The notes under the pieces are model-generated. The model did no database searches. It was not told where the DNA came from and saw nothing but the letters and a program-made list of their open reading frames with translations. This document shows positions 5,535-63,622 of a stretch of 64,000 nucleotides of DNA, one piece after another; within the stretch, counting starts at the first letter, position 1; every line of letters begins with the position of its first letter. The position numbers and the translations under genes are program-made. Where the stretch lies: assembly GCA_964471165.1 (NCBI GenBank), contig CAYYEX010000004.1:22378-86377 (forward strand), given 5' to 3'. This stretch comes from an uncultured Candidatus Saccharibacteria bacterium. Lineage in GTDB: Bacteria; Patescibacteriota; Minisyncoccia; Phycocordibacterales; UBA2100.

Positions 5535-5571
5535 GAAAAAATCGTAGCATGGAAAGCATTGGGTAAACGTG

Positions 5572-6879
5572 TCAGTTCACCTCGCCAAGCGTGGGCACGT
5601 TCAGTCGCCTTCGAACAGTTTCACCCCTGAAGAGCACCTCGACTCGGGTGGGGGTCTCACCACGTTCCCCCATGTGCGCACTGTGCGTCATCGCGTGGAA
5701 ACTCGACGCGAGAAAGATTGAATGCTTGCCGTACTTTGCAGAAATCTCATCGACGCTTTCATACACACTTTTCATCGCTTCAGTTTTCAAAACAGAGCCA
5801 AACAAATCGAGCTGAGTTTTATTGGCGTCCTGTAATTGCATGAGGGCGATACCCGTTGCTCGGTAAAGCGTTCCCCGCTTGAACACACGGGGAAACTGCA
5901 CGCGCACGGCGGCAAGAATGTCTTCGGGGACGCAAGTTGCATGCGAGAGTTTTATTTCGCAGCCGTGGTATTTAAATTCCTGTGTTTTCAAAAAGAAGAA
6001 AACGACCGGTGAGGCGAGGCCCCACCGCCGCGCCTTAATGCAGGCGTTCTCTATGTTTTTTGAAAGCTGCGAGGCAATGAACTTGGGGTCGCGCGAGGGT
6101 GGTGTAAATGTTTTGGTTTTACTGATTGACTGATACGTTTCGCGCCCTGCCACATCGAGCTCAAATGCGACTTCCCCGTTGAGCTCTTTCCATATCTCGA
6201 ATATCGGCTTGGTAACGGTCTGCTTTACCCACGCCTCGTCGCGAACGGCAAAGTCGTAGGCGGTACGCACACCAAATTTTTGTAGATATGCGCTCGTGTT
6301 GGGCCCGATGCCCCACACACTCCCTGCGGGGGTCTTTTGCAAAAAGTCTCGGGCGTCCTTGAGTGGTATCGGTGTGAACCCATCGGGCTTTTTCCACTTT
6401 GAGCCGATTTTTGAGAGCACCTTGGTGGCGGAGAGTCCGATGGAGAACGTCATACCGAGTTCACGCTCCAAATCACGCCGTATCGTTTCGGCCATTGTTT
6501 CGTACGACATGCGTAGCGACCGGCGCAAGCCCGTTAAGTCGGCAAAGCATTCGTCGATTGAATATTCTTCGACAGCCGGTGTGTAGCGACGCACGATTTC
6601 GTACATGCGATTCGAAAACAAACTATATGTTTCGTAGTCCGACGGGAGCACAATCGCGTCCGGGCAGGCTTTGAGTGCCTCGGGAATCGATACACCGCGT
6701 TTTACGCCGCGAGCCTTTGCTTCGTATGTGCACGCGGAAACAATGCCCCGCTCCTTACCTGTGATTACCGGCTTACCCCGCAATGATGGATTCTTTGCCA
6801 CTTCGCATGCCGCAAAAAAAGAGTCCCCGTCGATGTGGAGTATGGCGCGCGGATAACTTCTCGGAGAACCCCATGTCAT
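5572..6879 (-). CDS. dinB: Y-family DNA polymerase (DinB / Pol IV-like)
   Basis: ILHIDGDSFFAACE...SIDECFADLTG...SIGLSATKVLSKIGS is the IMS/UmuC signature. ATG at 6879. Confidence 0.85.
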   Translation of the reverse strand: MTWGSPRSYPRAILHIDGDSFFAACEVAKNPSLRGKPVITGKERGIVSACTYEAKARGVKRGVSIPEALKACPDAIVLPSDYETYSLFSNRMYEIVRRYTPAVEEYSIDECFADLTGLRRSLRMSYETMAETIRRDLERELGMTFSIGLSATKVLSKIGSKWKKPDGFTPIPLKDARDFLQKTPAGSVWGIGPNTSAYLQKFGVRTAYDFAVRDEAWVKQTVTKPIFEIWKELNGEVAFELDVAGRETYQSISKTKTFTPPSRDPKFIASQLSKNIENACIKARRWGLASPVVFFFLKTQEFKYHGCEIKLSHATCVPEDILAAVRVQFPRVFKRGTLYRATGIALMQLQDANKTQLDLFGSVLKTEAMKSVYESVDEISAKYGKHSIFLASSFHAMTHSAHMGERGETPTRVEVLFRGETVRRRLNVPTLGEVN

Positions 6880-45821: not shown

Positions 45822-47333
45822 ATGGTACGTGTGGATACGGGCAAAAACAACGGCCCCGAGCGCGTGACCCTGTGTGATATTATCGCGAACATGATAATAG
45901 ACGGTGAGCTGCTCTCGGATTCCGCCAGAAAGACCATGTCCCCGGGAGAATCCGCAGTGAGCGCCTTCATTTCATTCATTGAGAGAAGGCTAAACGTCAC
46001 GGTCGTACGCGAGCTGCGCAAATACACTTGGGGAAATCCGCGTCTAGCCTCGGCAGCCGAACTCGCAGTTCTTTTGCAAGATAGACACATCGCACAGTCA
46101 TTTCAAAGAATGTCCCAGCGCGCAGATGAACCACGCCTTCTGCGCTGGAATGCGGTAGGCTTTGGAGAGTCGGAACATCGTTCAGGCGGGGCTTCATTTT
46201 CCATCGAAGAGAACGCACTCTATGCATGCGTTGCAGAGTCTCTCGAACGGTATCTCTGGTCGGAGAAGTCCGATTATTTCCGAAAGCCGATGCACGGAAC
46301 CGAGCGTGAGGTGGGTTCACGCACCCCTATCATTCCAGTCGCACGATTCGCAGGATTTTCCTGCGAACAACGTGCACAAAACCCGAAACTCTTTATCTCA
46401 CCAGAGACATCTTTCCTGTGGATTGAGGCGGTCTCGGTTATAACCGGACAGAATGTCCACGTGCCAGCCCAAGTAGTCAGCGGCTACAACGATGCGCAGC
46501 GCACAGGTGTGCCTGCCGAGCCGAGCATCCGACCGCGGATAACAACAGGCCTCGCCACTTGGCGAGATGTTTTGGGAGCACGTCTGCGCGGTGCGCTCGA
46601 GGTGATTGAGCGCGACGCATACATGATTATGTGGCTCAATCAGCTCGTACTTCCGCGCATCAATCTCAAAGATATCTCGGCGAGAAATGCGGAAGTACTT
46701 CGCCAAATACAAAGTTGTGAACGCTATGGATTACGTGTTCATGCGATTCGTATGATTACCGACGCCCCCACATATGCAATATGTGTTGTTGTCGAAGATA
46801 CATATACTTCTTCGCCAAAATATTCGGTGGGTCTGAAAACTGGGCACTCAATCGCCGATGCTATTCTCGGGGCATTGTCCGAGGCACTTCGCGCACGTTG
46901 GAGCACTCGCCACAAAGTAGAACAAGGAACCTTGTGGGATGAAGCGCGCCCCGTTTCCGAAATTGGCCACACGGAGCGACTCGTGTTCTGGGCAGATGCC
47001 GGGCGTTCCCACAAACTTGATTTTTTGATTGCTGGACAAGAGACACGTTTTACTCCTGAGGAGTGGGAGTCTGACAGCGACGCGACTCATCTGAAACGCC
47101 TTGTCTCGTGGTGTAAAAAGACGGGCTACGAAATGATTTCTGTGGGACTCGACACTCCCAGCAACAATCCGCTGCCATGGCACGTGGAAATGACCATCAT
47201 TCCCGAATTACAGCCCATGTATTTGCACGAATCGAAACATGTTCTCGGAGGAACTCGAATCTCGACTATCCCGAGTATGTTCGGATACCCCGCGCGAGCT
47301 CCTTACCTCGATACCCCGCATCCATTCGCCTAA
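45822..47333 (+). CDS. YcaO-domain protein (azoline-forming cyclodehydratase family)
   Basis: SFSIEENALYACVAESLERY and ALEVIERDAYMIMWLNQ match the YcaO ATP-binding signatures (S...E..ERY, E.IERD). ATG at 45822. Confidence 0.7.
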   Translation: MVRVDTGKNNGPERVTLCDIIANMIIDGELLSDSARKTMSPGESAVSAFISFIERRLNVTVVRELRKYTWGNPRLASAAELAVLLQDRHIAQSFQRMSQRADEPRLLRWNAVGFGESEHRSGGASFSIEENALYACVAESLERYLWSEKSDYFRKPMHGTEREVGSRTPIIPVARFAGFSCEQRAQNPKLFISPETSFLWIEAVSVITGQNVHVPAQVVSGYNDAQRTGVPAEPSIRPRITTGLATWRDVLGARLRGALEVIERDAYMIMWLNQLVLPRINLKDISARNAEVLRQIQSCERYGLRVHAIRMITDAPTYAICVVVEDTYTSSPKYSVGLKTGHSIADAILGALSEALRARWSTRHKVEQGTLWDEARPVSEIGHTERLVFWADAGRSHKLDFLIAGQETRFTPEEWESDSDATHLKRLVSWCKKTGYEMISVGLDTPSNNPLPWHVEMTIIPELQPMYLHESKHVLGGTRISTIPSMFGYPARAPYLDTPHPFA

Positions 47334-49688: not shown

Positions 49689-51326
49689 ATGAGTGACCGC
49701 GCCCGACTGCGCGAGGCGATTGCAGGAGCGTTTAAGTACCGCGACCGGGATGGCGCAGTTATCATCGATCAATCGGGGTCCCAATCGAGGTGGATTGCTG
49801 ACTTCCGCTCGATTGTTCTTCGTTCAGAATGGCTCAACCTATATGCAAAACTTTTTTGGGAGACTTACGGAAATCGCTATCCATTTCAGGTTGCTGGTAT
49901 GGAAACCGTTGGTATCGCGCTCGTCGCAGCAATTGTGATGAAAGGGGCTGAGATTGGGAAACCGGTCAATGGTTTCTTTATCCGAAAGTCTCGAAAAAAA
50001 GATGGTCTCATGAGAGCTATCGAAGGAACCTTAACCAAGGAGCCCGTGATTCTTGTCGACGACCTCATCAACTCCGGAAACACATTCGACAAACAACTCT
50101 TACTGCTCGACGGAATGGGTTTGAGCGTGACTGATATCTTTGCAGCCCTCCGATTCCGCCCAACTGAAGCATATACATTCGCTCAAGAGCGCAACATCGC
50201 GGTCACGGCACTTTTTAGTCTCAAGGACTTCGGTCTGCCGCTACGACCTGTGAGTGAGCCCGTGGTTCCACATTCCTCATTTTCGAAACTGTGGCACTAT
50301 CAGGCACCACATCCGTCACTCCAAGTTGTTGCAGAAAAATCCGCTCCTACCCTTTTTGAGAATCTAGTCCTCTTTGGATGTGATGACGGTGTTCTTCGCG
50401 CACTTGATACTGAAAGTGGCACCCTCGTCTGGGAGTTTACAATCGGACGACATCGCGGTGGTAAAGGGATTCTTTCGAGTCCTGCCGTACACGATGATGT
50501 TGTCTACTTCGGTGGATACGATGGAAACGTTTATGCGCTTGATGCGCGTACAGGGAAGAAAAAATGGTCCTATGAAGAGGCAGATTGGGTGGGCTCGTCG
50601 CCGGCAATCGACATAGCACGAGGGCGCCTCTATATCGGTCTGGAATTTGGCCTCTTCGGGAAAAAGGGCGGTATCGTTGCACTCAAACTCGCAGACGGCA
50701 GCGAGATTTGGCGCGACACAACCGTCGCATTCACACACGGCTCCCCCCTCTACATTCCCGAAGAGGATATGGTGGTTATCGGTAGCAATGACCATATCGT
50801 GTACGCCTACGACGCTGGGAACGGTGCTCGTTTGTGGACATTTGCAACAGACGGAGACATCAAATCCAAACCCGCATACGACACAAAACGCCGCCATATC
50901 GTGGTGAACTCCATGGATGGTTCCTGCTATGTATTGAGAGCGCGCGATGGAGAACCGCTGTTTGCAAAAGAAGCCGAGTTTGGATTTTACTCATCTCCGC
51001 TCATACACGGTGACACTATATATTCAGCATCGCTCGACAAGACACTCTACGCGTTCAATGCAGAAACATATGCAGACGAGTGGGTGTTTGAAACGCAGGG
51101 TCGAATATTTTCCTCTCCTACTCTATTCGATGACTCACTGTGGGTGGGTTCAAATGATGGTCGGCTCTACGAGCTGAATCCGCAGACAGGTGCACTTAAA
51201 AACTTCTTTCAAGCAACTGAGCGGATTGTGAATGCGCCCGTGTATGAAGTCTCGTCACAACGCATTTTCGTGCCAACACAGGCAAACGAAATCTACTGCA
51301 TCAAAAAAGAGTTCGTTCAACATTAA
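49689..51326 (+). CDS. fusion protein: N-terminal type-I phosphoribosyltransferase (OPRT-like) domain plus a C-terminal PQQ-repeat beta-propeller
   Basis: PVILVDDLINSGNT (PRPP-binding loop) in the first 200 aa; then 6-8 repeats of the ..DG.(L/V)YALDA.TG...W.. type. Confidence 0.6.
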   Translation: MSDRARLREAIAGAFKYRDRDGAVIIDQSGSQSRWIADFRSIVLRSEWLNLYAKLFWETYGNRYPFQVAGMETVGIALVAAIVMKGAEIGKPVNGFFIRKSRKKDGLMRAIEGTLTKEPVILVDDLINSGNTFDKQLLLLDGMGLSVTDIFAALRFRPTEAYTFAQERNIAVTALFSLKDFGLPLRPVSEPVVPHSSFSKLWHYQAPHPSLQVVAEKSAPTLFENLVLFGCDDGVLRALDTESGTLVWEFTIGRHRGGKGILSSPAVHDDVVYFGGYDGNVYALDARTGKKKWSYEEADWVGSSPAIDIARGRLYIGLEFGLFGKKGGIVALKLADGSEIWRDTTVAFTHGSPLYIPEEDMVVIGSNDHIVYAYDAGNGARLWTFATDGDIKSKPAYDTKRRHIVVNSMDGSCYVLRARDGEPLFAKEAEFGFYSSPLIHGDTIYSASLDKTLYAFNAETYADEWVFETQGRIFSSPTLFDDSLWVGSNDGRLYELNPQTGALKNFFQATERIVNAPVYEVSSQRIFVPTQANEIYCIKKEFVQH

Positions 51327-51777: not shown

Positions 51778-52557
51778 ATGAACGTTTTTGAATCTGTACC
51801 TGAGTTTGTAAATCTTGATAATCGCGTGTCACGCACATTCAGTCCCATTTCAGCCGAGCAAATGCTACACAAGCACGAAAGCCTGCTCCCCCGCGAGCTC
51901 GTCGAAGGAAAAACAGTGCTCGATCTCGGATGTGGCATCGGTGCGACCGGCCATTGGTGCCTCAGCAACGGTGCGGCGCACTACACCGGCGTCGAGCCGC
52001 AGCAAACGTACATGGAAACGGCCGATTCGTTGTTGAAAAAATATTATCCCGGTCGTGCTGATATCGTTCACACTTCGCTTGAACAGTACCTACGTGAGCA
52101 CAACACCCAATTTGACGTTGTCACCGTACTGGCCGTATTGCATGCATCGGTCGATATATGTAGTCGGCTCGAACAGATTACGACTCGTACCCGCGAAGTC
52201 GTGGCAATCGAAGAACTGCTTCCCCGTCTCAATGCAAAGGACCCATCGTTCAATGGTGTCGAGTTTTCACAAACCGAAGGAATAAACTTGGCTGACACGA
52301 ACGCATCGCTCTCGGGGCGGGGCGCTCGCATTTCACCCCTCGGCCTCGCATTTCTTATGGAGGGTTTCGGTTTCGAATCATCGGGGGTACTCCCGATACG
52401 CCCTATTTCTGATACTGTTGACAACTTCAACGCCCCTCAGAAGCCCAGTAATGCTCGCTACGTAATGAGATTTCGCCGAACCGGTACTATGCGCGGGAGC
52501 GTCTCGGAAAATATGCTCACCGGAAACAGGAGCGCCATTAAACCATGGCTGGTATGA
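51778..52557 (+). CDS. class I SAM-dependent methyltransferase, CmoB-like (carboxymethyl-transferase-like)
   Basis: [28 protein letters not shown] vs E. coli CmoB [40 protein letters not shown] vs FDTVFSMGVLYH. Confidence 0.5.
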   Translation: [259 protein letters not shown]

Positions 52558-53198
52558 CAGATCGTTGGGAGTTCGACGAGTCAGTTGCGAAACGCTTCGA
52601 CGAAGAGGCCCGCAAGCACATCCCTCATTACGAGGAAGTCATCCAAGCGTCGCTCTCGATTGCACTCGATGTTTTTCCAGACAAAAAGGCACGGGTACTC
52701 GATGTCGGTTCCGCTCTCGGGCACACACTCGAAGTATTTCGGGCGGCGGGATTTGAAGATGTGCATGGCGTCGATAACTCAGCGGCGATGCTCGCTCACT
52801 CGCGAGTCCGCGATAACCTGATACTTTCTGACTCGTTTCCAAGCGATGCCGGGATGTTCGATGTTGTAACTGCAAACTGGACACTCCACTTTATTCGTGA
52901 CGCATCCCTGCGCGCACTCTACATCCACGACATTTCTAAAAGTTTATCCGCGGAAGGTGTGTTCATACTGACCGACAAGATGGAAGCAACGCAAGACGAA
53001 TACGATGGCTATCACAACTTCAAACGCACGATGGGTCTCTCTGATACTGAGATTAATGAAAAGGCTCGTGCTCTTGAGGGAGTGCTGATTCCCTTCCCGG
53101 TGCAATGGTACGAAGAGATTCTCAGTCAGACAGGTTTCCGGTCAGTTGAAGTAATCGATTCGCAATGGTGTTTCAATACCTTCGTATGTCGAAGATAA
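52545..53198 (+). CDS. CmoA-like methyltransferase-fold protein (carboxy-S-adenosyl-L-methionine synthase-like)
   Basis: WEFDESVAKRF / IPHY / DVGSALG / VDNSAAMLAHSR / VVTANWTLHF / HNFKRTMGLSDTEI / SQWCFNTFVC line up with CmoA WTFDERVAEVF / VPGY / DLGCSLG / IDNSPAMIERCR / VVLNFTLQF / HDFKRANGYSELEI / FQCFNFGSLVA. It overlaps the CmoB-like gene by 13 nt. Confidence 0.6.
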   Translation: MAGMTDRWEFDESVAKRFDEEARKHIPHYEEVIQASLSIALDVFPDKKARVLDVGSALGHTLEVFRAAGFEDVHGVDNSAAMLAHSRVRDNLILSDSFPSDAGMFDVVTANWTLHFIRDASLRALYIHDISKSLSAEGVFILTDKMEATQDEYDGYHNFKRTMGLSDTEINEKARALEGVLIPFPVQWYEEILSQTGFRSVEVIDSQWCFNTFVCRR

Positions 53199-54412
53199 AT
53201 ACACTGTTAGTCGCCGCAGGAATCATAGCCGTGTTTTCAGTATTTTTGGGATACATATTCACTCAAACCAATGTACGAGGAACGCAGAGTGTGGAACACG
53301 CTCTGGATTCTCTTTCCCCCTGCTTCACTGCGCGCAACCCCGAAGATAAAGCTGACCTTGCGTGTCTCGAGCGCGAAGTGAACGAACTCCTCTCCAAGTT
53401 CCCGACCCACGCTGTAATGAGCAAGATTAGTGCGAGCACATCTCCACTGGTGGTAGTGAGAAATTGTCATCTTATCGGGCACATGATTGGGCACAAAACA
53501 TTTCAGAGGACACCCTCGCTCGAGGATGCATACGAGCAGTGCACCGCGAGTTGCAAAAACTCGTGTGTTCACGGCGTCACAACCGAAGCAATATCTCAAG
53601 AATTGGGCGAGTCGTACGTGGCAGAGGATTTGTCACACGCTGACGGCGAGACCCTCGCAACGATTGGTAAACGGTACTGTGACCGACAAAAGGTGCTCTG
53701 TCACTCAGTGGGTCATCTATTACGCATTGCGCTCAAGTCGTATCAAGCCGCGCTTCCTATATGCGAACAGATGGGTACTAATAAAATCGATTGTTATAAG
53801 GGAGTATTCATGGAAGATGCGGCGTCTATCGAGCTCACAACGCGAGGACTGCCCGATCAAACAATTGCTCAAGAAAATTACGTGTCCCCATGCGCATCGG
53901 TACCAACGAAGTATGGACGGCAATGTTTCTGGTACCTCCATCTTTATCAGTCGAGCCTGTTCGAAAAGAACGGCATCTCCACAACGGCAGAACAATTGCG
54001 GATATTCCGCAATGCATGTGATTCTTTACCCGATCAACAGCGTGCATGGTGTTACTACGGCATGGGAGGAAATGCATACCGAGATCGTGACGAAGACGGA
54101 TCTCCTGTCGACATAGTGACATTTTGCGACCCGATTATTCGCTCAGTAGATAGGACACAGTGTACGGTGGGCATTGTGCGCTCGTATTTTACAACGGTCC
54201 TCCCGCGCCCTGACAGGGCACGGACATTTTGCGAGCAGCAGGCAAACGTTCAGTTGAAAAACACATGCTATGAGACAGTATTTACCCTCGAGAGTGAAAG
54301 TCTCGCAACGTCGTCGATAGAAGCTTTGTGTGGACCTGTTCCCTCGATAGCATGCACTGCCGCATTCAACACATACACACCCCCCCGCAACCCAATCGAG
54401 TCCGACGACTAA
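53186..54412 (+). CDS. Cys/His-rich secreted protein, paralog family member 2 of 3
   Basis: Signal anchor MSKINTLLVAAGIIAVFSVFLG; motifs as for 41496..42740. Confidence 0.55.
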   Translation: MSKINTLLVAAGIIAVFSVFLGYIFTQTNVRGTQSVEHALDSLSPCFTARNPEDKADLACLEREVNELLSKFPTHAVMSKISASTSPLVVVRNCHLIGHMIGHKTFQRTPSLEDAYEQCTASCKNSCVHGVTTEAISQELGESYVAEDLSHADGETLATIGKRYCDRQKVLCHSVGHLLRIALKSYQAALPICEQMGTNKIDCYKGVFMEDAASIELTTRGLPDQTIAQENYVSPCASVPTKYGRQCFWYLHLYQSSLFEKNGISTTAEQLRIFRNACDSLPDQQRAWCYYGMGGNAYRDRDEDGSPVDIVTFCDPIIRSVDRTQCTVGIVRSYFTTVLPRPDRARTFCEQQANVQLKNTCYETVFTLESESLATSSIEALCGPVPSIACTAAFNTYTPPRNPIESDD

Positions 54413-55521
54413 TGCATATGAATCGACTTATTTACTACAAATCCGGCGCTGTAACAACACCGGAGGCACGTCTTCTCCCCGGAATGGACCGTTTCGCATC
54501 GTTTTTTGAAATTACAAACGACACAGCAATGCCAGTCGATCGCACAGGAACCATACGTTTTCCCATTCGAACCCATTCTCTTTTTTCAATGCCGACACTG
54601 CGTCCCTATACAAAATCATATTCAGAAACATGTGACGAGCGGGCTGTCGAGATTCTCAAGCGCGCTACTGCATTGAATGTCGATGTGCGAGTAATGTGGT
54701 CTGGTGGAATTGATAGCACGGTTGCACTTGTCGCACTGCTTAAAAACGCAACAACCAAAGAGGAGCTGCAGCGCATCGTTGTATTACTCTCCGAGGAATC
54801 AATATCGGAAAATCCCCGCTTCTTTGAAGCACATATCCACGGAAAGATCCGGTACGACTCTGCAATCATGTTTCCATACCTTCTTGGCACGAAGCACATC
54901 CTTGTAAGCGGAACGCATAACGACCTGCTTTTTGGAAAAGATATTGTAGGATCGATCGTGAGTCGGTTCGGCATGTCGAAAGTTCTCAGTTTAATAGACC
55001 GAGATATTCTCCGTACTTTTTTAGCAGAAAAGACAGGTGCTGCCGATACTGCTGAATTTTATATTGAATTATTTGAAAAACTGCGCGCGATTGCTCCTCT
55101 GCCAATTGACTCAATCTACAATCTGTTCTGGTGGTTCGACTTCTGTACAAACTGGCAAAAAGTGTACACGTCAATTCTTCCGTTCACTGCAGAGCGAAAC
55201 ATACCACTTATTACGAGTGAATATGTGGATACGTACTACATGCCTTTTTTCAATACGGAAGATTTTCAACTGTGGAGCATGAACAATCTTGATAAACGAA
55301 TAAAGGACACGTGGGAGTCCCATAAGTGGCCGGCAAAAGACATGATTTACGATTTCACAAAAGACGCTGAGTATCGTGACACAAAGATAAAACGAAGTTC
55401 ACTCTACTTCCTCATCGTGCAACAAAAGTCTGTGAACTTTATTGATGAGTCGTTTCGATTTTTTGACGAAGCGACCAGTACCGATTACTACGACCCAAAG
55501 AACGATTTCAGAGACGAGTAA
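54412..55521 (+). CDS. PP-loop (SGGxDS) ATP-pyrophosphatase superfamily protein, paralog 1 of 3 (asparagine-synthetase-C-domain-like / adenine nucleotide alpha hydrolase)
   Basis: VRVMWSGGIDSTVALVALL at about residue 115. The start overlaps the previous stop (TAATG). C-terminal block FNTEDFQLWSMNN...KWPAKD..Y.FT.D..YR..K.KR.SL is conserved in all three copies. Confidence 0.6.
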   Translation: MHMNRLIYYKSGAVTTPEARLLPGMDRFASFFEITNDTAMPVDRTGTIRFPIRTHSLFSMPTLRPYTKSYSETCDERAVEILKRATALNVDVRVMWSGGIDSTVALVALLKNATTKEELQRIVVLLSEESISENPRFFEAHIHGKIRYDSAIMFPYLLGTKHILVSGTHNDLLFGKDIVGSIVSRFGMSKVLSLIDRDILRTFLAEKTGAADTAEFYIELFEKLRAIAPLPIDSIYNLFWWFDFCTNWQKVYTSILPFTAERNIPLITSEYVDTYYMPFFNTEDFQLWSMNNLDKRIKDTWESHKWPAKDMIYDFTKDAEYRDTKIKRSSLYFLIVQQKSVNFIDESFRFFDEATSTDYYDPKNDFRDE

Positions 55522-55559: not shown

Positions 55560-56234
55560 ATGGACACGTGGTATGCATTGCTCGATATCGGAACAAAAGC
55601 GGTGCTGACGATAAGCCAACGACAAAGCGCCATGGTTTTTTTACGCGAGTGCACCATTGATACAGCACTTTCAAATGGCGTTAACACACCCCGGTATACT
55701 CACTCGTGGATACACAAGGAGCCTTTTTTTCTTGCTCGGTTGCGCCCGGAATTCTATCCTGAATGGACATGGGATGTACAATCGCGTTCATTCCGTAAAA
55801 CACTCCCTGAGCTGGTAACCCCCGCTCTGAGGGCGCGCTCCCGCCTTGCCACGGTAAAGGTCCGCACAATATCTCAGATGATGTCACAAGTCTCCATGAC
55901 GCGTCAGCATTTCCAATCCGGTGTTGATTTCCAAGAGACTGTCTATTTAACGAAGAAAGCCCAGGCCCAGCAATTCGTGCAAAATGGTTACGACGAATCC
56001 GATATTTTGAACATTCCCTACGTGCTTCAGTATGCCGACTTAAAAGGTCTTTCACTTCGTCAGGCAGCGGAGGATATACTTTTTCGTGCAAAACTCGACG
56101 ACGAACTACTTGCGCGTACCGAACTTCTGCGCCTAACGTATTTCGAAAAGGTGAAACAGGCAACAAACCCCGACGATCTGCCAAGAATACTGAGTGCTTT
56201 CCATACCGCAGCATTCAGATCGAGACCTGTATGA
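55560..56234 (+). CDS. conserved ~225-aa partner protein (paralog 1 of 2) preceding a PP-loop gene
   Basis: Aligns with 60721..61440 (e.g. YLTKKAQAQQF...IPYVLQYADL...AAEDILFRAKL...TELLRLTYFEKVKQ...DDLPRILSAFH.AAF). No known motif. Confidence 0.45.
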   Translation: MDTWYALLDIGTKAVLTISQRQSAMVFLRECTIDTALSNGVNTPRYTHSWIHKEPFFLARLRPEFYPEWTWDVQSRSFRKTLPELVTPALRARSRLATVKVRTISQMMSQVSMTRQHFQSGVDFQETVYLTKKAQAQQFVQNGYDESDILNIPYVLQYADLKGLSLRQAAEDILFRAKLDDELLARTELLRLTYFEKVKQATNPDDLPRILSAFHTAAFRSRPV

Positions 56235-57325
56235 AAAACCTCTTGCTAGCTCACGCGAGAACCGTCGTCTCCCCCGCAAACCAACACGTACCCGGGATAA
56301 AGACTCTCACTGCTTTTTTCGATATCTACCGTACGGGTGTAATCCCGATTGATCGGACAAACACATTTCGCACCCCCGTGCGCAGCACAATGCTTTTCCC
56401 TATGCCCACGTTTCGCATTCACAAAGGTACCTACGAAGATGCCTGCAATGCGCGAGCAACGGAAATCATTCAGCGAGCAGAGACGTTGGATTGTCCAATA
56501 TTTTCGTTCTGGTCGGGTGGAATCGATAGTACGTGCGTACTTGTCTCCCTCTTAAAGAACTCTACACAGCAACAGCGAGAACGCATCACTGTACTCATGT
56601 CAGAGGACTCAATTGCGGAAAACCCGAACTTTTATGCCGAGCATATTCACGGCAAAGTGCGGCATGACTCGGCGGGAATGTTTCCATACATGCTCGGGAG
56701 CGAGCGAATCTTTGTGAACGGTGAACACAATGACCAGTTGTTCGGTTCCGACATTGTCGCCGCCTTCATAAATCGATTCGGTGCCGCCATCATTCACCAG
56801 CCCTTCGCGCGAGACACAATACTCACGTTCTTCACTGAACGCACGAAAGACGTAGCAATGGCGGTCTTTTATCTTGAGCTGTTTGAGCGACTCAAGGCGG
56901 TAGCACCCGTACCAATTGAAACGAACTATGATTTCTTTTGGTGGATTAATTTCGCGACAAAGTGGCAGAGTGTGTACATGCGTACCCTTACATACACGGC
57001 ACCACGCAACCTGCACCTCATCAATAAAACGTATCTTGATAAATATTACGCACCATTCTTTAACACCGAGGAGTTTCAACTCTGGAGCATGAATAACCCG
57101 GACAAGAAAATTAAAGACACATGGAAAACATACAAGTGGGCTGCGAAGGAATTAATCTATGAATACACAAAGGATGCTGAGTATCGTGATAACAAAATAA
57201 AACGCGGCTCCCTCGTGATGCTCACAGACCAGCAAAAACCCTCCCCGTTCATCACCGACACGTTTCAGTTCCCCCAAACCCTTGCACCCGAAGAATATTG
57301 CGACCCGGAGAACGATTTTGTGTAA
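56231..57325 (+). CDS. PP-loop (SGGxDS) ATP-pyrophosphatase superfamily protein, paralog 2 of 3
   Basis: IFSFWSGGIDSTCVLVSLL; ATGA overlap with the partner gene. Confidence 0.6.
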   Translation: MKNLLLAHARTVVSPANQHVPGIKTLTAFFDIYRTGVIPIDRTNTFRTPVRSTMLFPMPTFRIHKGTYEDACNARATEIIQRAETLDCPIFSFWSGGIDSTCVLVSLLKNSTQQQRERITVLMSEDSIAENPNFYAEHIHGKVRHDSAGMFPYMLGSERIFVNGEHNDQLFGSDIVAAFINRFGAAIIHQPFARDTILTFFTERTKDVAMAVFYLELFERLKAVAPVPIETNYDFFWWINFATKWQSVYMRTLTYTAPRNLHLINKTYLDKYYAPFFNTEEFQLWSMNNPDKKIKDTWKTYKWAAKELIYEYTKDAEYRDNKIKRGSLVMLTDQQKPSPFITDTFQFPQTLAPEEYCDPENDFV

Positions 57326-57388: not shown

Positions 57389-57970
57389 TCAGTGCTCGTG
57401 CTTGTGGCCGTGATGGTGCCCATGCCCGTGGTCGTGACTGTGGTCGCTCGGATGCTTCATCCTGTCCGGCGCGTTCACGTCCTTGTGCGGATGCCCGAAA
57501 GCGATGATGACCAGCGGTTCCCGCGCGGTTTCCGGCGGACCGGTCACCGCATGCGGGTGTTCACCCGGGATGAACATGGTGTCACCTGGCCCGACAACCC
57601 GGTCCTCCCCGCTGATGTGGACAGACCCGACACCCGAGAGAAACAGCAAGACATGGTCGCCGACATGCTCGTGGAGCGCAAAGGCGCTCCCCGGCTGCAT
57701 CTCGATGCAATCCACACCGATGTCGGTTCCATCAACCTTCATGCCGACCGCGCCCATGCGTCCGCGAATGCCCTTGAGCGGCTTGCCGTCCGAATCATAC
57801 ATCTCGGACAAGTCGCCCTTCAATACATTTCGCAGATGCTGACCGTCAATCCACTTGCGTGCTGCTGCACGCATTGCCGCAACTTGAACCGATTCCACCG
57901 GCACCTCCATTGATTCGAAACCCAATCCGGTTTCCGTGCGCAGTATGCACAATATGACCTCATATTTCAA
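57389..57970 (-). CDS. cupin-domain protein with a His-rich C-terminal tail (HDHGHGHHHGHKHEH)
   Basis: Cupin motifs G(X)5HxH...(E)...G...P.G..H (HEHVGDHVLLFLSG...MFIPGEHPHAV); the His tail suggests metal binding. Start uncertain. Confidence 0.55.
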   Translation of the reverse strand: MKYEVILCILRTETGLGFESMEVPVESVQVAAMRAAARKWIDGQHLRNVLKGDLSEMYDSDGKPLKGIRGRMGAVGMKVDGTDIGVDCIEMQPGSAFALHEHVGDHVLLFLSGVGSVHISGEDRVVGPGDTMFIPGEHPHAVTGPPETAREPLVIIAFGHPHKDVNAPDRMKHPSDHSHDHGHGHHHGHKHEH

Positions 57971-57991: not shown

Positions 57992-59275
57992 CTATCCACG
58001 AGCAGATGTTTCGTCGCTCATATCCAAAACAATTTTTGACTTTCCCCGAGGGGTTTTGGGCAAATCATCGACCGTCTCTACCGAAACTCTTACTGTGGGC
58101 CCAACGAGCTCCTGAATATTCAAAAGAATTTTTGAGCGTGCACCCTCCCCAAACGCGACACCCGGAATCAGGAGGACGGCGACTTCCTCTTCGGATTTTT
58201 TCACAACAAGATATCGCATAATCGCATTCATGAATGTCTCGAGCGCAGCGTCGAACTCCAGATGATTGATGCGTCGATTCTGGAATGTGAGGAACGCAGC
58301 ATAGCGACCCTCGAGCCACACACGCGGAGATTCCCTACCGCAAGAACATCTCGAGTGCGTCATCGTGCCGTGATCTCCCGTGTCATACCTGATGAACGGC
58401 ATCCCCGTGTTATAGAGGTCGGTGACAACGATTCGTCCATCGGTACCGTCGGGCACCGGCAGACCCGACTCGTCTACAATCTCCACAAACAGCGACTCAC
58501 AACTGGTATGCAATCCGTCATGTTTTTCGCATTCCATGCCGACAACCGCAAACTCCTCCATTCCGTAGCGGTTGTAAACTTCGCACCCGAGGACCGATTC
58601 GATATAACGACGTAACGCCGGCGTCATCTGTTCGCCGCCCGATATCACATAGCGCACCTGGAACGGGATATGCTTCTGTTCCACCAGCTGAGCCATCGAG
58701 TGAAGTATGGATGCGAAGGATTCAATAATGTCGGGTCGAAATGCAATGACACGATTGAGAACGTTCTCGGGTTCGAGCAAATAATCCGTGATTGTTACGA
58801 ACAACCGGTTTTTGCGCGGCTTCGCTTTTGTGAATATGCGAGCGATACGCGGCCAGGTGGGCATCTTCCAGGGATTTTCCCAATAGAACATTCTGTACAC
58901 GACCGAGTCTACATAAATATTTTTCTTGAAATGAGCGCGCGTCAGCATGGTGAGCGGCTCTCCACTCGTGCCCGACGTGGTCGCCCATCGTCCCACAAGC
59001 ATTGCGCTGTTATCCGTGTATTCGTCAGCGGGACGACCGAGAAACATCTTCTTGGAAACAATCGGGAGATTGTTCATGTCTGCAAATGACCGAATGTCCG
59101 GAGCAGAATCCCCTGGCTTACCATATAATTCGCCGTACATCGGAACATTTTTTGCCGCATGCGCAACGATTGTGCGCAATCGCCGAAGCTGCCACGCCTC
59201 GATAGCGACGCGCCCGCGCATGTGGAGCGTGTGGAATAGAACAAAATCGATACGATTTTTAAATTTCTTCCACAT
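57992..59275 (-). CDS. phenylacetate-CoA ligase-like (PaaK / coenzyme F390 synthetase family) adenylate-forming enzyme, paralog 1
   Basis: WATTSGTSGEPL (P-loop/A3)...VISGGEQMTP...YNRYGMEEF...IRYDTGDHG...PRGKSKIV. Started at the ATG at 59275 to avoid overlap with the paralog. Confidence 0.65.
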   Translation of the reverse strand: MWKKFKNRIDFVLFHTLHMRGRVAIEAWQLRRLRTIVAHAAKNVPMYGELYGKPGDSAPDIRSFADMNNLPIVSKKMFLGRPADEYTDNSAMLVGRWATTSGTSGEPLTMLTRAHFKKNIYVDSVVYRMFYWENPWKMPTWPRIARIFTKAKPRKNRLFVTITDYLLEPENVLNRVIAFRPDIIESFASILHSMAQLVEQKHIPFQVRYVISGGEQMTPALRRYIESVLGCEVYNRYGMEEFAVVGMECEKHDGLHTSCESLFVEIVDESGLPVPDGTDGRIVVTDLYNTGMPFIRYDTGDHGTMTHSRCSCGRESPRVWLEGRYAAFLTFQNRRINHLEFDAALETFMNAIMRYLVVKKSEEEVAVLLIPGVAFGEGARSKILLNIQELVGPTVRVSVETVDDLPKTPRGKSKIVLDMSDETSARG

Positions 59276-60638
59276 GTTTCGTGCTGGATTGTTTATACCC
59301 CACAAAATACAATGCTTTACCGCTCTTCGACGCCGGAATTTCTTCAACTATTTCCCACGTAATCACTGCCGCAGGGTGCAAAAGACGAATGAGCCGCAAT
59401 TCTAGGTCTTTTTTATCTCGTTCAAATCTTTCCCCAGCCATGACTCGTACAGAAAACGTGTATTGTTCCTGTTGAACAATCTGAAATTGCTTGACGCTCT
59501 CAGAATGCCAGTCGAATACCGACGCGAAGTCGAGCAGCGAAACAGTCCGCCCATCATCAAAATGAATAAATTCGATTTCGCGACCCGTCACCTGAATTGT
59601 GCGGAGTGTTCTACCGCATGCACACGGCTCATCGGATATCTTGCCCTTATCTCCATTGCGATAGCGAATCATAGGCATGATACGGCTATCGAAGACGGTC
59701 GCTACAACAAATCCTTCGGTACCAAATGGCGCAGGGTTTCCCTGCTCGTCCACAATTTCAACATACGCCCATTCCTCATTGAGATGCATAGCGCGCTCTT
59801 CACATTCGAAGCCAAGCCACCCGAGTTCGCGTGTCGCATACGTGGTGAAAAACTTTGTGTGTAAATCTTGTTCAATTGTCTTGCGCTCTGAAGAGCGAAT
59901 ACTCTCACCCGTGGCGATAATTGCACGGATTGGCAACAGCACGTTCGATTCGCGGGCACGTCGAGCCAGTTCAATACATGCCGATGGAAATCCGTAGAAT
60001 ACAACCTCTGATTTGAGTGACTTCACAAACTCCACAAGCGCCGGAAGTCGGAACTTCACGGTGTTGTAGTTCTTCATGAAAAAAAGATGCTGGTTATGAG
60101 TCAAAAAACCGAGCTTCTCACGTGCGCGAAGCGCAATCACGGGTGGGCGGGTGCCCCCTGCTGCAGTTGCCACCATACGTTCACATACTGCAAACGAACG
60201 TAATTCCCATGCACGATCGACATAGAAATCAAACGGGCGACCCGTTGAGCCTGATGTGTGGTCGGAGAAACCAGAGTGGAGCAAATCTGGGTCGGTCCAG
60301 TACGATATATTATCTTTTGGAAAGTTGCGTTTGGATGTAATCGGCATATTGACAAAGTTGCCCTCCAAGACGTGGTCAGGGTCGATATTGTTTTGGGCAT
60401 AGATATCGCGCCACAAAGCGACACGCTTTGCATATCGCATGAGATCGATGATGCGCTCACGCGTGTACGAGTCGAGCGTCTCACGCGACCAGTACTGGCT
60501 CACGAGAAGCGCACGTGTATCTGCCCACAGAGGGATACGGAGTGTCACCTTCCAATTAAGAGGTCCTCTTGTCCAGAGTAAATCGCTCCTCCACCCTCGC
60601 TTTAAAAGAGTATTCATAGCGAAACGCCCAGCTTTCAT
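59259..60638 (-). CDS. phenylacetate-CoA ligase-like adenylate-forming enzyme, paralog 2
   Basis: HTSGSTGRPF...IATGESI...YATRELGWLGFECE...IRYRNGDKG...SKSGKALY. Start taken at the ATG at 60638 (alternative 60617). Confidence 0.65.
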   Translation of the reverse strand: MKAGRFAMNTLLKRGWRSDLLWTRGPLNWKVTLRIPLWADTRALLVSQYWSRETLDSYTRERIIDLMRYAKRVALWRDIYAQNNIDPDHVLEGNFVNMPITSKRNFPKDNISYWTDPDLLHSGFSDHTSGSTGRPFDFYVDRAWELRSFAVCERMVATAAGGTRPPVIALRAREKLGFLTHNQHLFFMKNYNTVKFRLPALVEFVKSLKSEVVFYGFPSACIELARRARESNVLLPIRAIIATGESIRSSERKTIEQDLHTKFFTTYATRELGWLGFECEERAMHLNEEWAYVEIVDEQGNPAPFGTEGFVVATVFDSRIMPMIRYRNGDKGKISDEPCACGRTLRTIQVTGREIEFIHFDDGRTVSLLDFASVFDWHSESVKQFQIVQQEQYTFSVRVMAGERFERDKKDLELRLIRLLHPAAVITWEIVEEIPASKSGKALYFVGYKQSSTKHVEEI

Positions 60639-60720
60639 GGCATGGAGTATAGCAAAAGGCGCCCTGTTTTGAGACACATATCTTCCCGCAAAAAAACCTT
60701 GTGATATCGTTAGTCTGCAT

Positions 60721-61440
60721 ATGAAATTGTTCCTATCGAAGCTCTTCGGCACACACAAAAAAGCGAAGTCCTCCCCTCATGTTCGGCTCTCCGAACACAG
60801 CGCGCTTGTCGATGCTGCCACCCGAGTCGTCATTGCGGTGAGCAATCACCCTGCTGCAATTAGATTTTTGAATGAGTCTATGATGGACACGTACCACATG
60901 CTTAATGTCACCAGACCCAACTACAAATACGGACTTCCCTTTTCATCTCGCGAAGAATCACTCGCTCATTGGACATGGAATGATCGTTCGCGACATTTTG
61001 AGCCGACAAAGGCCGAAGTTCTCACGGAGCGCCTCGATGCGCAATCGCGTCTCGGTATCCGTAAACTCCGTGCGGTCAAAAAGATTATGCGCCGTATCTC
61101 GCTTGCACGCTCACGCACTGCGTTTGGTATCGACTTGCAGGCGAGCGTGTACCTCGCAAAGAAGATACAGGCCCAAGCATTTAAGGATGCGCAATACGAC
61201 GAAGCTCGAATCCTATCATTCCCGTATGTACTGCAATACGCGGAGTTTGCAAACATATCTTTTCGGGCGGCGGCTGACGACATCCTACTCAAAGCGAAGC
61301 TCTATGATGATTTTCTTGCAAAGACTGAACTCCTGCGACTTTCCTATTTCAAGCAACTCAAGGAAATATCGAACGCGGACGATATTCCGAATCTGCTCGA
61401 AGCCTTCCATCGAGAAGCATTCGGTAATGCAATGGTATAG
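60721..61440 (+). CDS. conserved ~239-aa partner protein (paralog 2 of 2) preceding a PP-loop gene
   Basis: See 55560..56234. Confidence 0.45.
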   Translation: MKLFLSKLFGTHKKAKSSPHVRLSEHSALVDAATRVVIAVSNHPAAIRFLNESMMDTYHMLNVTRPNYKYGLPFSSREESLAHWTWNDRSRHFEPTKAEVLTERLDAQSRLGIRKLRAVKKIMRRISLARSRTAFGIDLQASVYLAKKIQAQAFKDAQYDEARILSFPYVLQYAEFANISFRAAADDILLKAKLYDDFLAKTELLRLSYFKQLKEISNADDIPNLLEAFHREAFGNAMV

Positions 61441-61443
61441 CGC

Positions 61444-62556
61444 ATGAAGGAGCTCATCTTCTACAACACAAACGTGGTGACGCACGCTTCTAACGCAAAT
61501 CTCCCTGGAGTATCAGAGTTTAAGAAGTTCTTCGGCATCTATCCACAGAGCTCAGTCTTCATAGACCGTTCGGAAACAATCACGATTCCTGTGAAAGTCC
61601 GCTCATTGTATCCGATTCCCAAACTGCGCGCGCTGACCAATACATACGAGGATATATGCAATGAACGCGCACTGGAGTTACTTTCGCGAGCTCGGACAAT
61701 GGATGTACCGATTTATGTTGCTTGGTCCGGTGGCATAGACTCAACACTCATCCTGGTAACGCTTCTCACGCATGCGTCGGATGCTGATAAAAAACGTATC
61801 ACGGTGCTCCTATCGGAAGAATCGATTGCGGAATATCCGGCCTTCTACCAAGAACATATTCGTGGATCTCTTGCATGCGAATCTATGTCACTCTTTCCGT
61901 ATCTCCTTGGTACGCGCGCACTCATTATCGGTGGTGAAAACAATGACCAGGTCTTCGGGTCTGATGTAATTTCAAAACTAATCAATCATCAAGGGCCCGC
62001 AATAATTCATGAGCGATACCGTCGTGAGATATTCTTTTCGTTCTTTAACTCAACCCTCGCGAACGAAGCGGCAACAGGTTTCTGTCTTGATGTAATCGAA
62101 CGAGTTGCTGCATCCGCTCCGGTATCACTTATGACACATTTCGACTACCTCTGGTGGCTGAACTTCGCTGTTAAGTGGCAATTTGTTGCGACCCGAATGC
62201 TCCCGTATGTTGCCCCGTCGAATGTAGCGAACGTGCGCGAGGGGTACCTTGGCGTTCTCTTCGATCAGTTCTACAACACTGAAAAGTTTCAACTCTGGAG
62301 TATGAACAATATGGATCTGAAAATCAAAGATTCGTGGTCGACATATAAATGGCCGGCGAAAGACGTCATCTATAAATTCACTCGCGATGAGGATTACAGA
62401 CAAAACAAGCAGAAGCGCGGCTCACTCGGTGCCATGCTTCAACAACAACGCTCGTATAATTTTATCGACAGCTCGTTCAACTTTTACCGTACGCTCGATT
62501 CTTCCGAGTATTTTGAACCGAACAACGATTTCCTACCTGCGCGACACCAGGCGTAG
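61444..62556 (+). CDS. PP-loop (SGGxDS) ATP-pyrophosphatase superfamily protein, paralog 3 of 3
   Basis: PIYVAWSGGIDSTLILVTLL; conserved C-terminal block YNTEKFQLWSMNN... Confidence 0.6.
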   Translation: MKELIFYNTNVVTHASNANLPGVSEFKKFFGIYPQSSVFIDRSETITIPVKVRSLYPIPKLRALTNTYEDICNERALELLSRARTMDVPIYVAWSGGIDSTLILVTLLTHASDADKKRITVLLSEESIAEYPAFYQEHIRGSLACESMSLFPYLLGTRALIIGGENNDQVFGSDVISKLINHQGPAIIHERYRREIFFSFFNSTLANEAATGFCLDVIERVAASAPVSLMTHFDYLWWLNFAVKWQFVATRMLPYVAPSNVANVREGYLGVLFDQFYNTEKFQLWSMNNMDLKIKDSWSTYKWPAKDVIYKFTRDEDYRQNKQKRGSLGAMLQQQRSYNFIDSSFNFYRTLDSSEYFEPNNDFLPARHQA

Positions 62557-62557
62557 C

Positions 62558-63622
62558 CTACTCAACTGAAAGAGCCCGGTTTTCGTCGACCATATTGCGA
62601 CAACGAGTCCGGTACTTCTCGGCCATCTCATCGCACGCGACATAGGACCCGTCTCCAATATTGTTCGCCACCTTAAGTAGAGCCCCGTATTCACACCACG
62701 CACGCTGCTGTTGCATGGGAAGGACAGTACAAAGAAAGTCGAGTCCCGTGTCCGTCGCGAGCATAGGGGGCATAGTCATCGCAAATGCGATTCCCGCGAT
62801 GCACGCCCGCTGCTCTCTTTGCTCCAAGACTTCACACGCGTGTATTGCACTACGTGCGCTTCCCCATGCAAAAATAGAATGTTTGGCAATATAGCGATAG
62901 CAGTGCATGGGATAATTTGGATATGTATCGCATAGATGGAGCTCTTTCCTTCGGAGTTCGTCATATTTCGGCTCATAGGTGGAATACTCCATGAACACTC
63001 CGCCGGCGCATACCCTCCGGATATCCTCACGCTCAAACACATCGCAGGATTCGATAGCTTTTGGAAGATTATAGTCACTCACATACGCAAACACGTGGCC
63101 GAGCCCGTGCACGCAAAATGTACTTTGCACGACCGCCTCGACTTCCGGTCGTTGGCAAATCGTTTTTGCTTCGGCGCGCACGTGTGCTATGTATTCATCA
63201 CTATCTTCTTCATTTATGACGCCCCCGAGTGTGTCACTGTCGGTTGAAAACATGCCCATGAAAACACCGTGCACACATCCGTCATTACAGCCTTTGCCGC
63301 ATTGCGCGAGCGCGGCACTAAAGTTAAGTGTTTTTTTGTAGACAGCGCGCCCAACTGGATGGGCTTGTACATGACATTCAGAATTCTTATATTTGCTCTC
63401 GAGTGCCCCGAGCATCGTCGAAAGATCCATGCGCTCCAGATAATGTGTCGCAACTGTTTCTTGCTCGGATGGCTGCGCGTTCGTGTATTCAGTGAGAAAT
63501 TTGGAAACAACCGATTGTGTCTGTATAAAAAACCAGACTGTCGCAACCGTGCAAACGATGGCAATACTCACGCCAATGACCACTTTGAGACGCATCCCAT
63601 TCCCATCCCGGGTGAATCGCAT
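62558..63622 (-). CDS. Cys/His-rich secreted protein, paralog family member 3 of 3
   Basis: TM anchor; motifs CHVQAHPVG...CGKGCNDGCVHGV...CVHGLGHVFAY...CAGGVFME shared with the other two. Confidence 0.5.
   Translation of the reverse strand: MRFTRDGNGMRLKVVIGVSIAIVCTVATVWFFIQTQSVVSKFLTEYTNAQPSEQETVATHYLERMDLSTMLGALESKYKNSECHVQAHPVGRAVYKKTLNFSAALAQCGKGCNDGCVHGVFMGMFSTDSDTLGGVINEEDSDEYIAHVRAEAKTICQRPEVEAVVQSTFCVHGLGHVFAYVSDYNLPKAIESCDVFEREDIRRVCAGGVFMEYSTYEPKYDELRRKELHLCDTYPNYPMHCYRYIAKHSIFAWGSARSAIHACEVLEQREQRACIAGIAFAMTMPPMLATDTGLDFLCTVLPMQQQRAWCEYGALLKVANNIGDGSYVACDEMAEKYRTRCRNMVDENRALSVE

Follow-up and report, generated by a model that had tools for sequence, protein, structure and literature searches.

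Two overlapping genes in a stretch of DNA from an uncultured Candidatus Saccharibacteria bacterium (positions 22,378 to 86,377 of contig CAYYEX010000004.1, assembly GCA_964471165.1; the whole 64-kb stretch is here called the window, and coordinates are counted from its first nucleotide) encode two proteins, designated A1 and A2, that work together as a unit and are genetically linked to a PP-loop, asparagine-synthetase-like enzyme, designated A3, and to a cupin. By sequence and fold, A2 belongs to the branch of proteins that includes CmoA, the synthase of carboxy-S-adenosyl-methionine (Cx-SAM), where it forms a clade of its own, and A1 is a short protein with the fold of class I S-adenosyl-methionine (SAM)-dependent methyltransferases. 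The pathway conserved around the pair also uses the PP-loop enzyme and often an oxygenase-type cupin or a 2-oxoglutarate (2OG) enzyme, and it has the look of a group-transfer route that has not been described before, as opposed to ordinary tRNA modification. The donor, the enzyme steps and the target discussed below are those that we infer for it.

A sequence-only reading of the window had described the pair as two open reading frames (ORFs) that overlap by 13 nucleotides, and this was borne out. A1 (51778..52557, + strand; 259 amino acids), a candidate transferase, is followed by A2 (52545..53198, + strand; 217 amino acids), a CmoA-branch paralog and candidate synthase of a SAM derivative; the A2 ATG lies at 52545 and the A1 TGA at 52555-52557. 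A Shine-Dalgarno-like AGGAG within the 3' end of A1 (52528..52532, + strand), 12 nucleotides before the A2 start, and the overlap itself are consistent with translational coupling, and in relatives of the pair the two genes overlap by 4-22 nucleotides or are fused. The identical locus was found on a 298-kb ENA metagenome contig, k141_321895 of ERZ27247837, and in independent Logan assemblies, and is thus no assembly artefact.

Conservation and fusion of the A1-A2 pair

Functional coupling of the two genes, which the sequence-only reading had also proposed, is upheld by their conserved pairing and frequent fusion. Of 24 genome or metagenome loci, 15 have A1 within 8 kb of A2, as do 58-59 of 65 viral loci, and A1 is directly upstream of A2 everywhere except in a few loci (L020, L041 and L064/L066). 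A single ORF with A1 at the N-terminus and A2 at the C-terminus (median length, 483 amino acids) replaces the pair in 36 viral loci, and such fusions account for 62 of the 147 newly listed best matches in a library of 1.84 billion representatives (150 best matches listed, minus three found earlier). Because A1 is consistently upstream of A2 or fused N-terminally to it, the order of the two is fixed in the family, and it is, as first read, the reverse of the E. coli order cmoA-cmoB, with an upstream protein that is shorter than CmoB (259 vs 323 amino acids). No description of an A1-A2 pair or fusion was found in the literature searched.

Clustered at 50% identity, the family comprises at least about 110 clusters, mostly A1-A2 fusions and mainly from uncultured phages. 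Relatives of A2 occur in 17 species-representative genomes, among them Adlerbacteria, Parcubacteria, Saccharibacteria, Gracilibacteria and several Alphaproteobacteria, and in 65 IMG/VR viral contigs, the longest of 354 kb. An origin of the viral A2 loci in T4-like cyanophages was rejected, as the loci are not of that type. PADLOC returned only a generic methyltransferase match (mad2), which provides no link to a defence system, and isoelectric points gave no separation of nucleic-acid from small-molecule targets.

In three loci that have no A1, A2 adjoins an integral-membrane methyltransferase of the ICMT/PEMT type instead (~217 amino acids, with a VRHPIHxG motif; L004 7314-7970, L013 4361-5125 and L027 6940-7602), an alternative partnership that fits a role of A2 as supplier of a donor that different transferases can use. 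In L027 the neighbours also include a fatty-acid-desaturase-like gene and a further PP-loop protein. The alphaproteobacterial metagenome-assembled genome JAYRWY01 has, on separate contigs (L015, L010), an operon of A1, A2 and A3 and a second A1 paralog that stands alone, the latter situated between RNase HII and a CcrM-like methyltransferase.

Relationship of A2 to CmoA

The claim that the downstream protein aligns block by block with CmoA held up, and the alignment runs from end to end. The best NCBIfam match of A2 is the CmoA model TIGR00740 (residues 6-215 on model positions 13-237 of 239, 81.9 bits), and its best solved relatives are E. coli CmoA (PDB 4gek, E 1.8e-14) and Haemophilus influenzae YecO. 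When a family profile built from 46 relatives was run against PDB structures, CmoA structures scored 118.7 bits and the next structure 45.7. An AlphaFold (AF2) model of A2, with a predicted local distance difference test (pLDDT) score of 95.4, gave 4gek as its top Foldseek match with a template modelling (TM) score of 0.83; the small-molecule O-methyltransferases CysG and BelI were close behind in this ranking (TM 0.80). The protein keeps the CmoA fold, the lid helices that bury the cofactor, and the SAM-binding residues Y39, D62, G64, D89, N132 and F137.

Within this branch A2 stands apart. A search of 5.8 billion proteins yielded 50 A2 clusters of 205-217 amino acids (E <= 1.6e-32, 38-58% identity), and true CmoA-type proteins began only at E 8.5e-15, a clear gap. 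Neighbour-joining analysis together with E. coli CmoA, phage CmoAs and other CmoA-type matches recovered the A2 family as monophyletic in 100 of 100 bootstraps, a clade separate from bona fide CmoA. The phage family phrog_4752 matches A2 at 141 bits, and both PHROGs and JGI call A2-type proteins 'tRNA methyltransferase', a label that is not justified by present evidence.

Relationship of A1 to CmoB

A1 is far less distinctive. In Pfam it matches generic methyltransferase domains only, with the CmoB family PF08003 at 23.5 against a cut-off of 23.8 (a fused phage homolog scores 31.2). Alignment with E. coli CmoB by hhalign is significant (94%) and confined to residues 34-126 on CmoB 112-204, which is the catalytic core, and the CmoB-specific N-terminal domain of ~100 residues is absent, as the alignment beginning at CmoB 112 and the length difference both indicate. 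A PDB search with the A1 family profile returned ToxA and MitM, not CmoB, while the AlphaFold model of A1 (pLDDT 92.8) had CmoB as its top Foldseek match at a TM of 0.53, barely above CypM, ToxA and UbiG.

Recognition of the Cx-SAM carboxylate by CmoB involves Lys91, Tyr200 and Arg315 (PMC4482062). The Tyr200 position is His122 in the window A1 and Tyr in 11 of 15 relatives, and the G197 position is Ala; Lys91 and Arg315 fall outside the region that can be aligned, where the invariant A1 residues R16, R19 and R231 are possible candidate counterparts. CmoB is thus the nearest characterised relative of A1 only weakly and through the catalytic core. Because of the core-only alignment, the low scores and the missing N-terminal domain, the name 'CmoB-like', given to A1 in the sequence-only reading, is defensible only in that sense: the relationship stands as a weak one, and the 'Gly loop and downstream blocks' once cited for it belong to the generic class I methyltransferase core.

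Association with A3 and cupins

A3 proteins are ~365 amino acids long, combine a PP-loop SGGIDS motif with an asparagine-synthetase-like GExNDQLFG motif, and recur near the pair in bacteria of the candidate phyla radiation (CPR), in Alphaproteobacteria and in phages. They have no Pfam family and only weak NCBIfam matches to amidotransferases of the Asn-synthase type, and an A3 profile run against the PDB found only the PP-loop of TilS (E 2.5). A3 is a candidate ATP-dependent carboxylate-activating or amide-forming enzyme of the A1/A2 pathway. The distance between A3 and A2 is at most 8 kb in 5 of 24 genome loci and 12 of 65 viral loci.

In the window, three A3 paralogs and a cupin all lie within 10 kb. 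The first two paralogs (54412..55521 and 56231..57325, both + strand) are 51% identical to each other, and the third (61444..62556, + strand) is 41-47% identical to them. The first carries SGGIDS and an asparagine-synthetase-like motif of the form GxxNDxLFG. The cupin (57389..57898, - strand; 169 amino acids) is a metal-binding protein of Pfam Cupin_2. It ends in a His-rich tail, HSHDHGHGHHHGHKHEH.

Gene order and gene fusion tie these components together elsewhere. An A1-A2-A3-x-cupin operon occurs in three alphaproteobacterial loci and was annotated in detail in Rhodospirillales (L019); no conserved small ORF that might encode a precursor peptide was found upstream of the alphaproteobacterial operon. 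Five metagenomic proteins of 1028-1812 amino acids (P0302, P0306, P0308, P0310 and P0315) have the domain order A3-A1-A2, and four of them carry a C-terminal Cupin_2 domain, which is absent in P0306 and was detected in P0310 by phmmer, not Pfam; one further fused protein is A2-A3. The L019 cupin and the C-terminal domain of the giant fusions are homologs. The window cupin has no detected sequence homology to these fused or operonic cupins, and it may nevertheless be their equivalent at this locus. The giant fusions constitute Rosetta-stone evidence for the whole pathway. One such protein is on a contig with a GRIP-domain gene (L102 4676-7882), and MMETSP transcripts fall into a cluster whose A2-like or CmoA-like domain is weaker; both points suggest that the pathway extends to microbial eukaryotes. 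Also present in phage loci are further PP-loop families, 2OG-Fe(II) oxygenases (in 19 loci) and radical SAM enzymes.

A proposed donor synthase and transferase pathway

The explanation that we favour, tentatively and by analogy, is that A1-A2 is a divergent module that pairs a donor synthase with a transferase in the manner of CmoA/CmoB, followed by A3 as an amide ligase. A2, with its closed-lid CmoA fold, would convert SAM to a modified sulfonium donor, for which Cx-SAM is the default guess; A1, which would have an open class I active site and is co-translated or fused with A2, would move the group from this donor onto a nucleophile of the target; and A3-type enzymes would adenylate the new carboxylate and convert it to an amide. 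The oxygenase, where present, may first make an acceptor hydroxyl, as TrhO/TrhP do for 5-hydroxyuridine (ho5U). The three-step model is preferred because its logic is that of the closest worked-out system, the phage CmoA-CmoX-CmoY pathway, in which DNA is hypermodified to 5-carboxymethylcytosine (5cxmC) and its glycine amide and the carboxymethyl handle is amidated by CmoY, which is homologous to asparagine synthetase (PMC12783734).

In published CmoA structures, Arg199 is the sole residue that touches the Cx-SAM carboxylate (PMC3663124, PMC4482062), and the equivalent position in the A2 family is Glu, Ala, Thr or Gln (A174 in the window). A missing Arg199 was dropped as a decisive test against Cx-SAM synthesis, since SpCmoA of Synechococcus phage S-B43, a validated Cx-SAM synthase with a kcat of 2.33 s-1 (PMC12783734), also lacks it; this protein, which is 100% identical in phages S-B05 and S-B43, has Glu at position 199. 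The clamp test was therefore recast as Arg at E. coli position 199 or 203, and SpCmoA and two other phage CmoAs without Arg199 have an arginine at the Glu203 position, one helical turn further on. Among bona fide CmoA proteins, Arg199 goes with Glu203, and Glu, Ser or Ala199 with Arg203 (SpCmoA, a Staphylococcus SPbeta-like phage and a faecal phage; the Arg/Glu swap was seen by comparing L095 5022-5717 from S-B05, L096 and L099 with L008 2703-3446). The clamp arginine thus looks to have been relocated in phage CmoAs, and annotation rules based on Arg199 would miss validated Cx-SAM synthases.

Several observations weigh against the proposed pathway, and the first of them concern the A2 pocket. 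Only 4 of 50 A2 clusters and 5 of 64 viral copies have an arginine at position 199 or 203, and the window protein has one at neither. All 114 of 114 A2 family members have His in place of Gln136, a residue of the TLQF motif that SpCmoA retains and that is invariant in sampled CmoA proteins except that of phage PaBG; the change marks divergence and is not proof of functional loss. Ser35 has become His or Asn, Ser66 has become Ala, and His214 has become Tyr; in the window protein the six positions read H25 (S35), A57 (S66), H115 (Q136), A174 (R199), E178 (E203) and Y189 (H214). With Arg199/203 missing and Gln136, Ser35 and Ser66 replaced, the known solution for carboxylate binding is absent from the family, and A2 combines a CmoA-like architecture with a differently lined pocket. 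Cx-SAM synthesis, as assumed in the sequence-only reading, is therefore possible but draws no support from the known determinants, and because the pocket differs in this way a donor synthase is something that we infer for A2.

Further points on the same side come from the profiles and from the company that the pair keeps. CmoA is the best model for A2, and the scores are far below the equivalog cut-offs (81.9 vs 193.3 bits for TIGR00740, 58.7 vs 285 for PRK15451); A1 scores 31.7 with UbiG in NCBIfam and 31.3 (vs 209) and 27.1 (vs 275) with CmoB models, far under their cut-offs, and its likeness to CmoB barely exceeds its likeness to many small-molecule methyltransferases. CPR bacteria generally lack aromatic amino-acid biosynthesis, so they may have no prephenate to draw on. 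A3 has no significant similarity to SpCmoY beyond the motifs (hhalign 29%). With at least 492 clusters, mostly from Kaiserbacteria, Paceibacteria and other CPR groups, it is also ~10 times more widespread than A1/A2 and is, for that reason, independent of them.

Alternative explanations

The main alternative is that A1 and A2 are ordinary SAM-dependent methyltransferases that act in turn on one small molecule or peptide, with no modified SAM, in a four-enzyme pathway with the PP-loop ligase and the cupin, comparable to the two-domain phosphoethanolamine and glycine/sarcosine N-methyltransferases. We consider this unlikely. A2 does lack the CmoA-specific Arg and Gln136, and its His115 matches the conventional enzymes MM_2633 and CysG/BelI, whose folds are almost as similar to that of A2 (TM 0.80), but its family profile is far nearer to CmoA than to any true methyltransferase (118.7 vs 45.7 bits) and the lid that buries the cofactor is kept. 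Generic small-molecule methyltransferases (ToxA, MitM, ChlM, RebM and PEAMT) are among the top matches of A1, and a tandem methyltransferase fusion is known in PEAMT, which appears among the PDB matches of both A1 and A2. Against successive methylation of a shared substrate, however, are the three loci in which closed-lid, soluble A2 is partnered by an integral-membrane ICMT-like protein, a combination for which a common substrate is improbable, and the recurring carboxylate-activating ligases, for which an installed carboxyl group is the simpler explanation.

A second possibility, to which we assign a distinctly lower probability, takes the pocket at face value: with His/His/Tyr in place of the Ser/Gln/His of CmoA and no arginine to clamp a carboxylate, A2 would make a different SAM-derived donor, and the oxygenase, A2, A1 and A3 together would install and amidate a new side chain. 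The target in this improbable case would be a nucleic acid, a peptide or a metabolite, and the enzyme set would be common to uncultured phages, CPR bacteria, Alphaproteobacteria and microbial eukaryotes, in the last as one protein of 1000-1800 amino acids.

It is very unlikely that the pair is a lineage-specific pathway for 5-carboxymethoxyuridine (cmo5U) at the tRNA wobble position in CPR bacteria, some Alphaproteobacteria and phages, possibly with amidation by A3. CmoA and CmoB are the closest characterised relatives of the two proteins, yet A1 is without the CmoB N-terminal domain and both are far under the equivalog cut-offs; on these grounds the pair is not the canonical cmoAB system for tRNA U34, from which the sequence-only reading had also set it apart. 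Some alphaproteobacterial copies lie among housekeeping genes, with YbeY, EngB and MnmE nearby, phages often carry tRNA-modifying genes, and PHROGs gives the A2 group a tRNA methyltransferase label; the contexts as a whole are nonetheless mixed, ranging from phage replication modules and lipid genes to the CPR island described below. No tRNA genes occur within the 64-kb window, and the combination of cupin and PP-loop fusion resembles no known cmo5U locus.

Genomic setting of the pair

The setting reported in the sequence-only reading, between a RiPP-like (ribosomal peptide) cluster and arrays of paralogous secreted proteins and ATP-dependent ligases, was confirmed, with YcaO and nitroreductase genes upstream and PP-loop paralogs, PaaK-like ligases and Cys-rich secreted paralogs downstream. 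Upstream of the pair and on the same (+) strand are a YcaO gene (45822..47333), a nitroreductase-type dehydrogenase that belongs to the same cluster, a 462-amino-acid membrane protein without a Pfam or NCBIfam family, and a 545-amino-acid fusion of an N-terminal phosphoribosyltransferase (PRTase) of the orotate/adenine type to a pyrroloquinoline quinone (PQQ)-like beta-propeller (49689..51326). Downstream of it, two Cys-rich proteins with N-terminal signal or anchor sequences (53234..54412, + strand; 62558..63622, - strand) are 24% identical and distantly related, and their kin also adjoin A2 in L007 and L014. Two of the three A3 paralogs are each preceded by one of two paralogous proteins of 224 and 239 amino acids (55560..56234 and 60721..61440; 44% mutually identical, with a weak match to phrog_8983), forming a repeated two-gene unit; neither these nor the Cys-rich proteins have a family in Pfam or NCBIfam. 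Two adjacent PaaK-like adenylate-forming ligases (57992..60677, - strand) best match the 'DVU_1553 family', and the third-best NCBIfam match of A2 is the 'DVU_1556 family methyltransferase', matches that may echo a related gene neighbourhood in Desulfovibrio.

These genes belong to an island of ~24 kb that begins directly upstream of rplC, where the ribosomal-protein genes are all on the minus strand (L3, 39315..39971; L4, 38607..39305; L2, 37385..38227). Farther away, a TraG/VirD4-like type IV coupling protein (17551..20355, - strand; 934 amino acids) lies among housekeeping genes for SecY, PurD and a DinB-type polymerase. Related CPR genomes (L101 1-15060, L100 and L007) have an island of this kind between rpsJ (S10) and rplC, and a hypervariable enzyme island thus appears to split the S10 ribosomal-protein operon. 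The constant core of these islands consists of tetratricopeptide repeat (TPR) proteins, the PRTase-PQQ fusion and a 190-240-amino-acid protein paired with A3, while the remaining enzymes vary. The syntenic island of the Kaiserbacteria type (L101) has an MbnB/TglH/ChrH-family (PF05114) enzyme at 4969-5853, together with a full AsnB and a GT4 glycosyltransferase, in place of YcaO and the methyltransferase pair, which hints that CPR islands encode variable peptide-modifying chemistry.

That the pair tailors a peptide of the adjacent azole-forming YcaO/dehydrogenase cluster, which resembles those for peptides made by ribosomes and then modified after translation (RiPPs), was the link drawn in the sequence-only reading and is highly improbable: the pair lies on the same strand 4.4 kb downstream of YcaO, L007 (the pair with nitroreductase, membrane protein and PRTase-PQQ genes) and L016 (A2 with YcaO, nitroreductase and PRTase-PQQ, and no A1) hold cluster genes, the MbnB/TglH-family enzyme lies in a syntenic island and TglE/TglF offer a precedent on a peptide thiol (PMC10491745), but the association of the pair or A2 with YcaO, nitroreductase or PRTase-PQQ does not generalise beyond these two related CPR loci, YcaO and nitroreductase being absent from the other genome loci and from all 65 of 65 viral loci, no precursor peptide was found, and adjacency within a hypervariable enzyme mix around a constant core is weak evidence for the YcaO product as substrate.

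Implications

Carboxy-SAM was once regarded as a rarity of Gram-negative tRNA modification. It was later found in 3-thiaglutamate and microcin C biosynthesis (PMC10491745) and, in 2025, in phage DNA hypermodification (PMC12783734). The A1/A2 family would add another branch to this theme, apparently a large one, new in having a transferase unlike the known ones and a synthase-like enzyme without the known carboxylate clamp, and the gene fusions delimit a four-enzyme pathway that is directly testable. What is known of cofactor chemistry would be extended by a new use of Cx-SAM or by a SAM derivative not seen before, and only production of a different SAM derivative by A2 would make the system categorically new; plain methylation would show the CmoA fold reverting to, or deriving from, a transferase. 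For annotation, the names cmoA, cmoB and 'tRNA (cmo5U34)-methyltransferase' should be avoided for these genes.

Comparison with known systems

A2 resembles CmoA (TIGR00740/PRK15451; PDB 4gek and 1im8) in its lidded fold and full-length alignment, and CmoA is its best match by sequence, profile and structure; the SAM-contacting residues and K165, K185, R186 and K198 are conserved. It differs in being ~30 residues shorter and in its separate clade. Like SpCmoA, A2 is without Arg199; unlike SpCmoA, it has no Arg203. A1 differs from CmoB (TIGR00452/PRK15068/PF08003; PDB 4qnu and 4p7c) in lacking the N-terminal domain, in having, in the window protein, His at Y200 and Ala at G197, and in a structural ranking that does not clearly set CmoB apart from other methyltransferases. 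The E. coli order is cmoA-cmoB, whereas here the transferase-like A1 is upstream of, or N-terminal to, the CmoA-like A2.

The suggestion in the sequence-only reading that such a pair might serve a substrate other than tRNA has published precedents in TglE/TglF, in MccS and in phage CmoA/CmoX/CmoY (PMC10491745, PMC12783734). TglE/TglF act on a peptide thiol in the formation of 3-thiaglutamate, and MccS with the C-terminal domain of MccB acts on peptidyl-cytidylate in Bacillus microcin C biosynthesis (PMC10491745). They share with the window a CmoA/CmoB-type pair with a non-tRNA role as precedent, and the window pair lies in an island of peptide-modification-like character. Compared by description, TglE/TglF are reported to be highly similar to CmoA/CmoB and to keep Lys91, whereas the proteins of the window are distant from them, and no homologs of TglB, TglH or TglI were found beside the pair in the window.

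In the phage CmoA-CmoX-CmoY system, CmoX is a C5-cytosine methyltransferase, unlike A1, which is a small class I methyltransferase, and tblastn searches with SpCmoX, the PaBG C5 methyltransferase and the Staphylococcus phage HhaIM homolog found no CmoX near A2 in the family loci or the window; the sole match, L094, carries a true CmoA and is outside the A2 family. Because no family locus has CmoX, the A1/A2 system is not the published DNA system. The two are alike in their three-part logic, in which an enzyme of the CmoA branch and a transferase of SAM fold are joined by an ATP-dependent enzyme with a PP-loop and asparagine-synthetase character, for which A3 is the candidate here, and A1/A2 are likewise frequent in large phage genomes, sometimes within replication modules.

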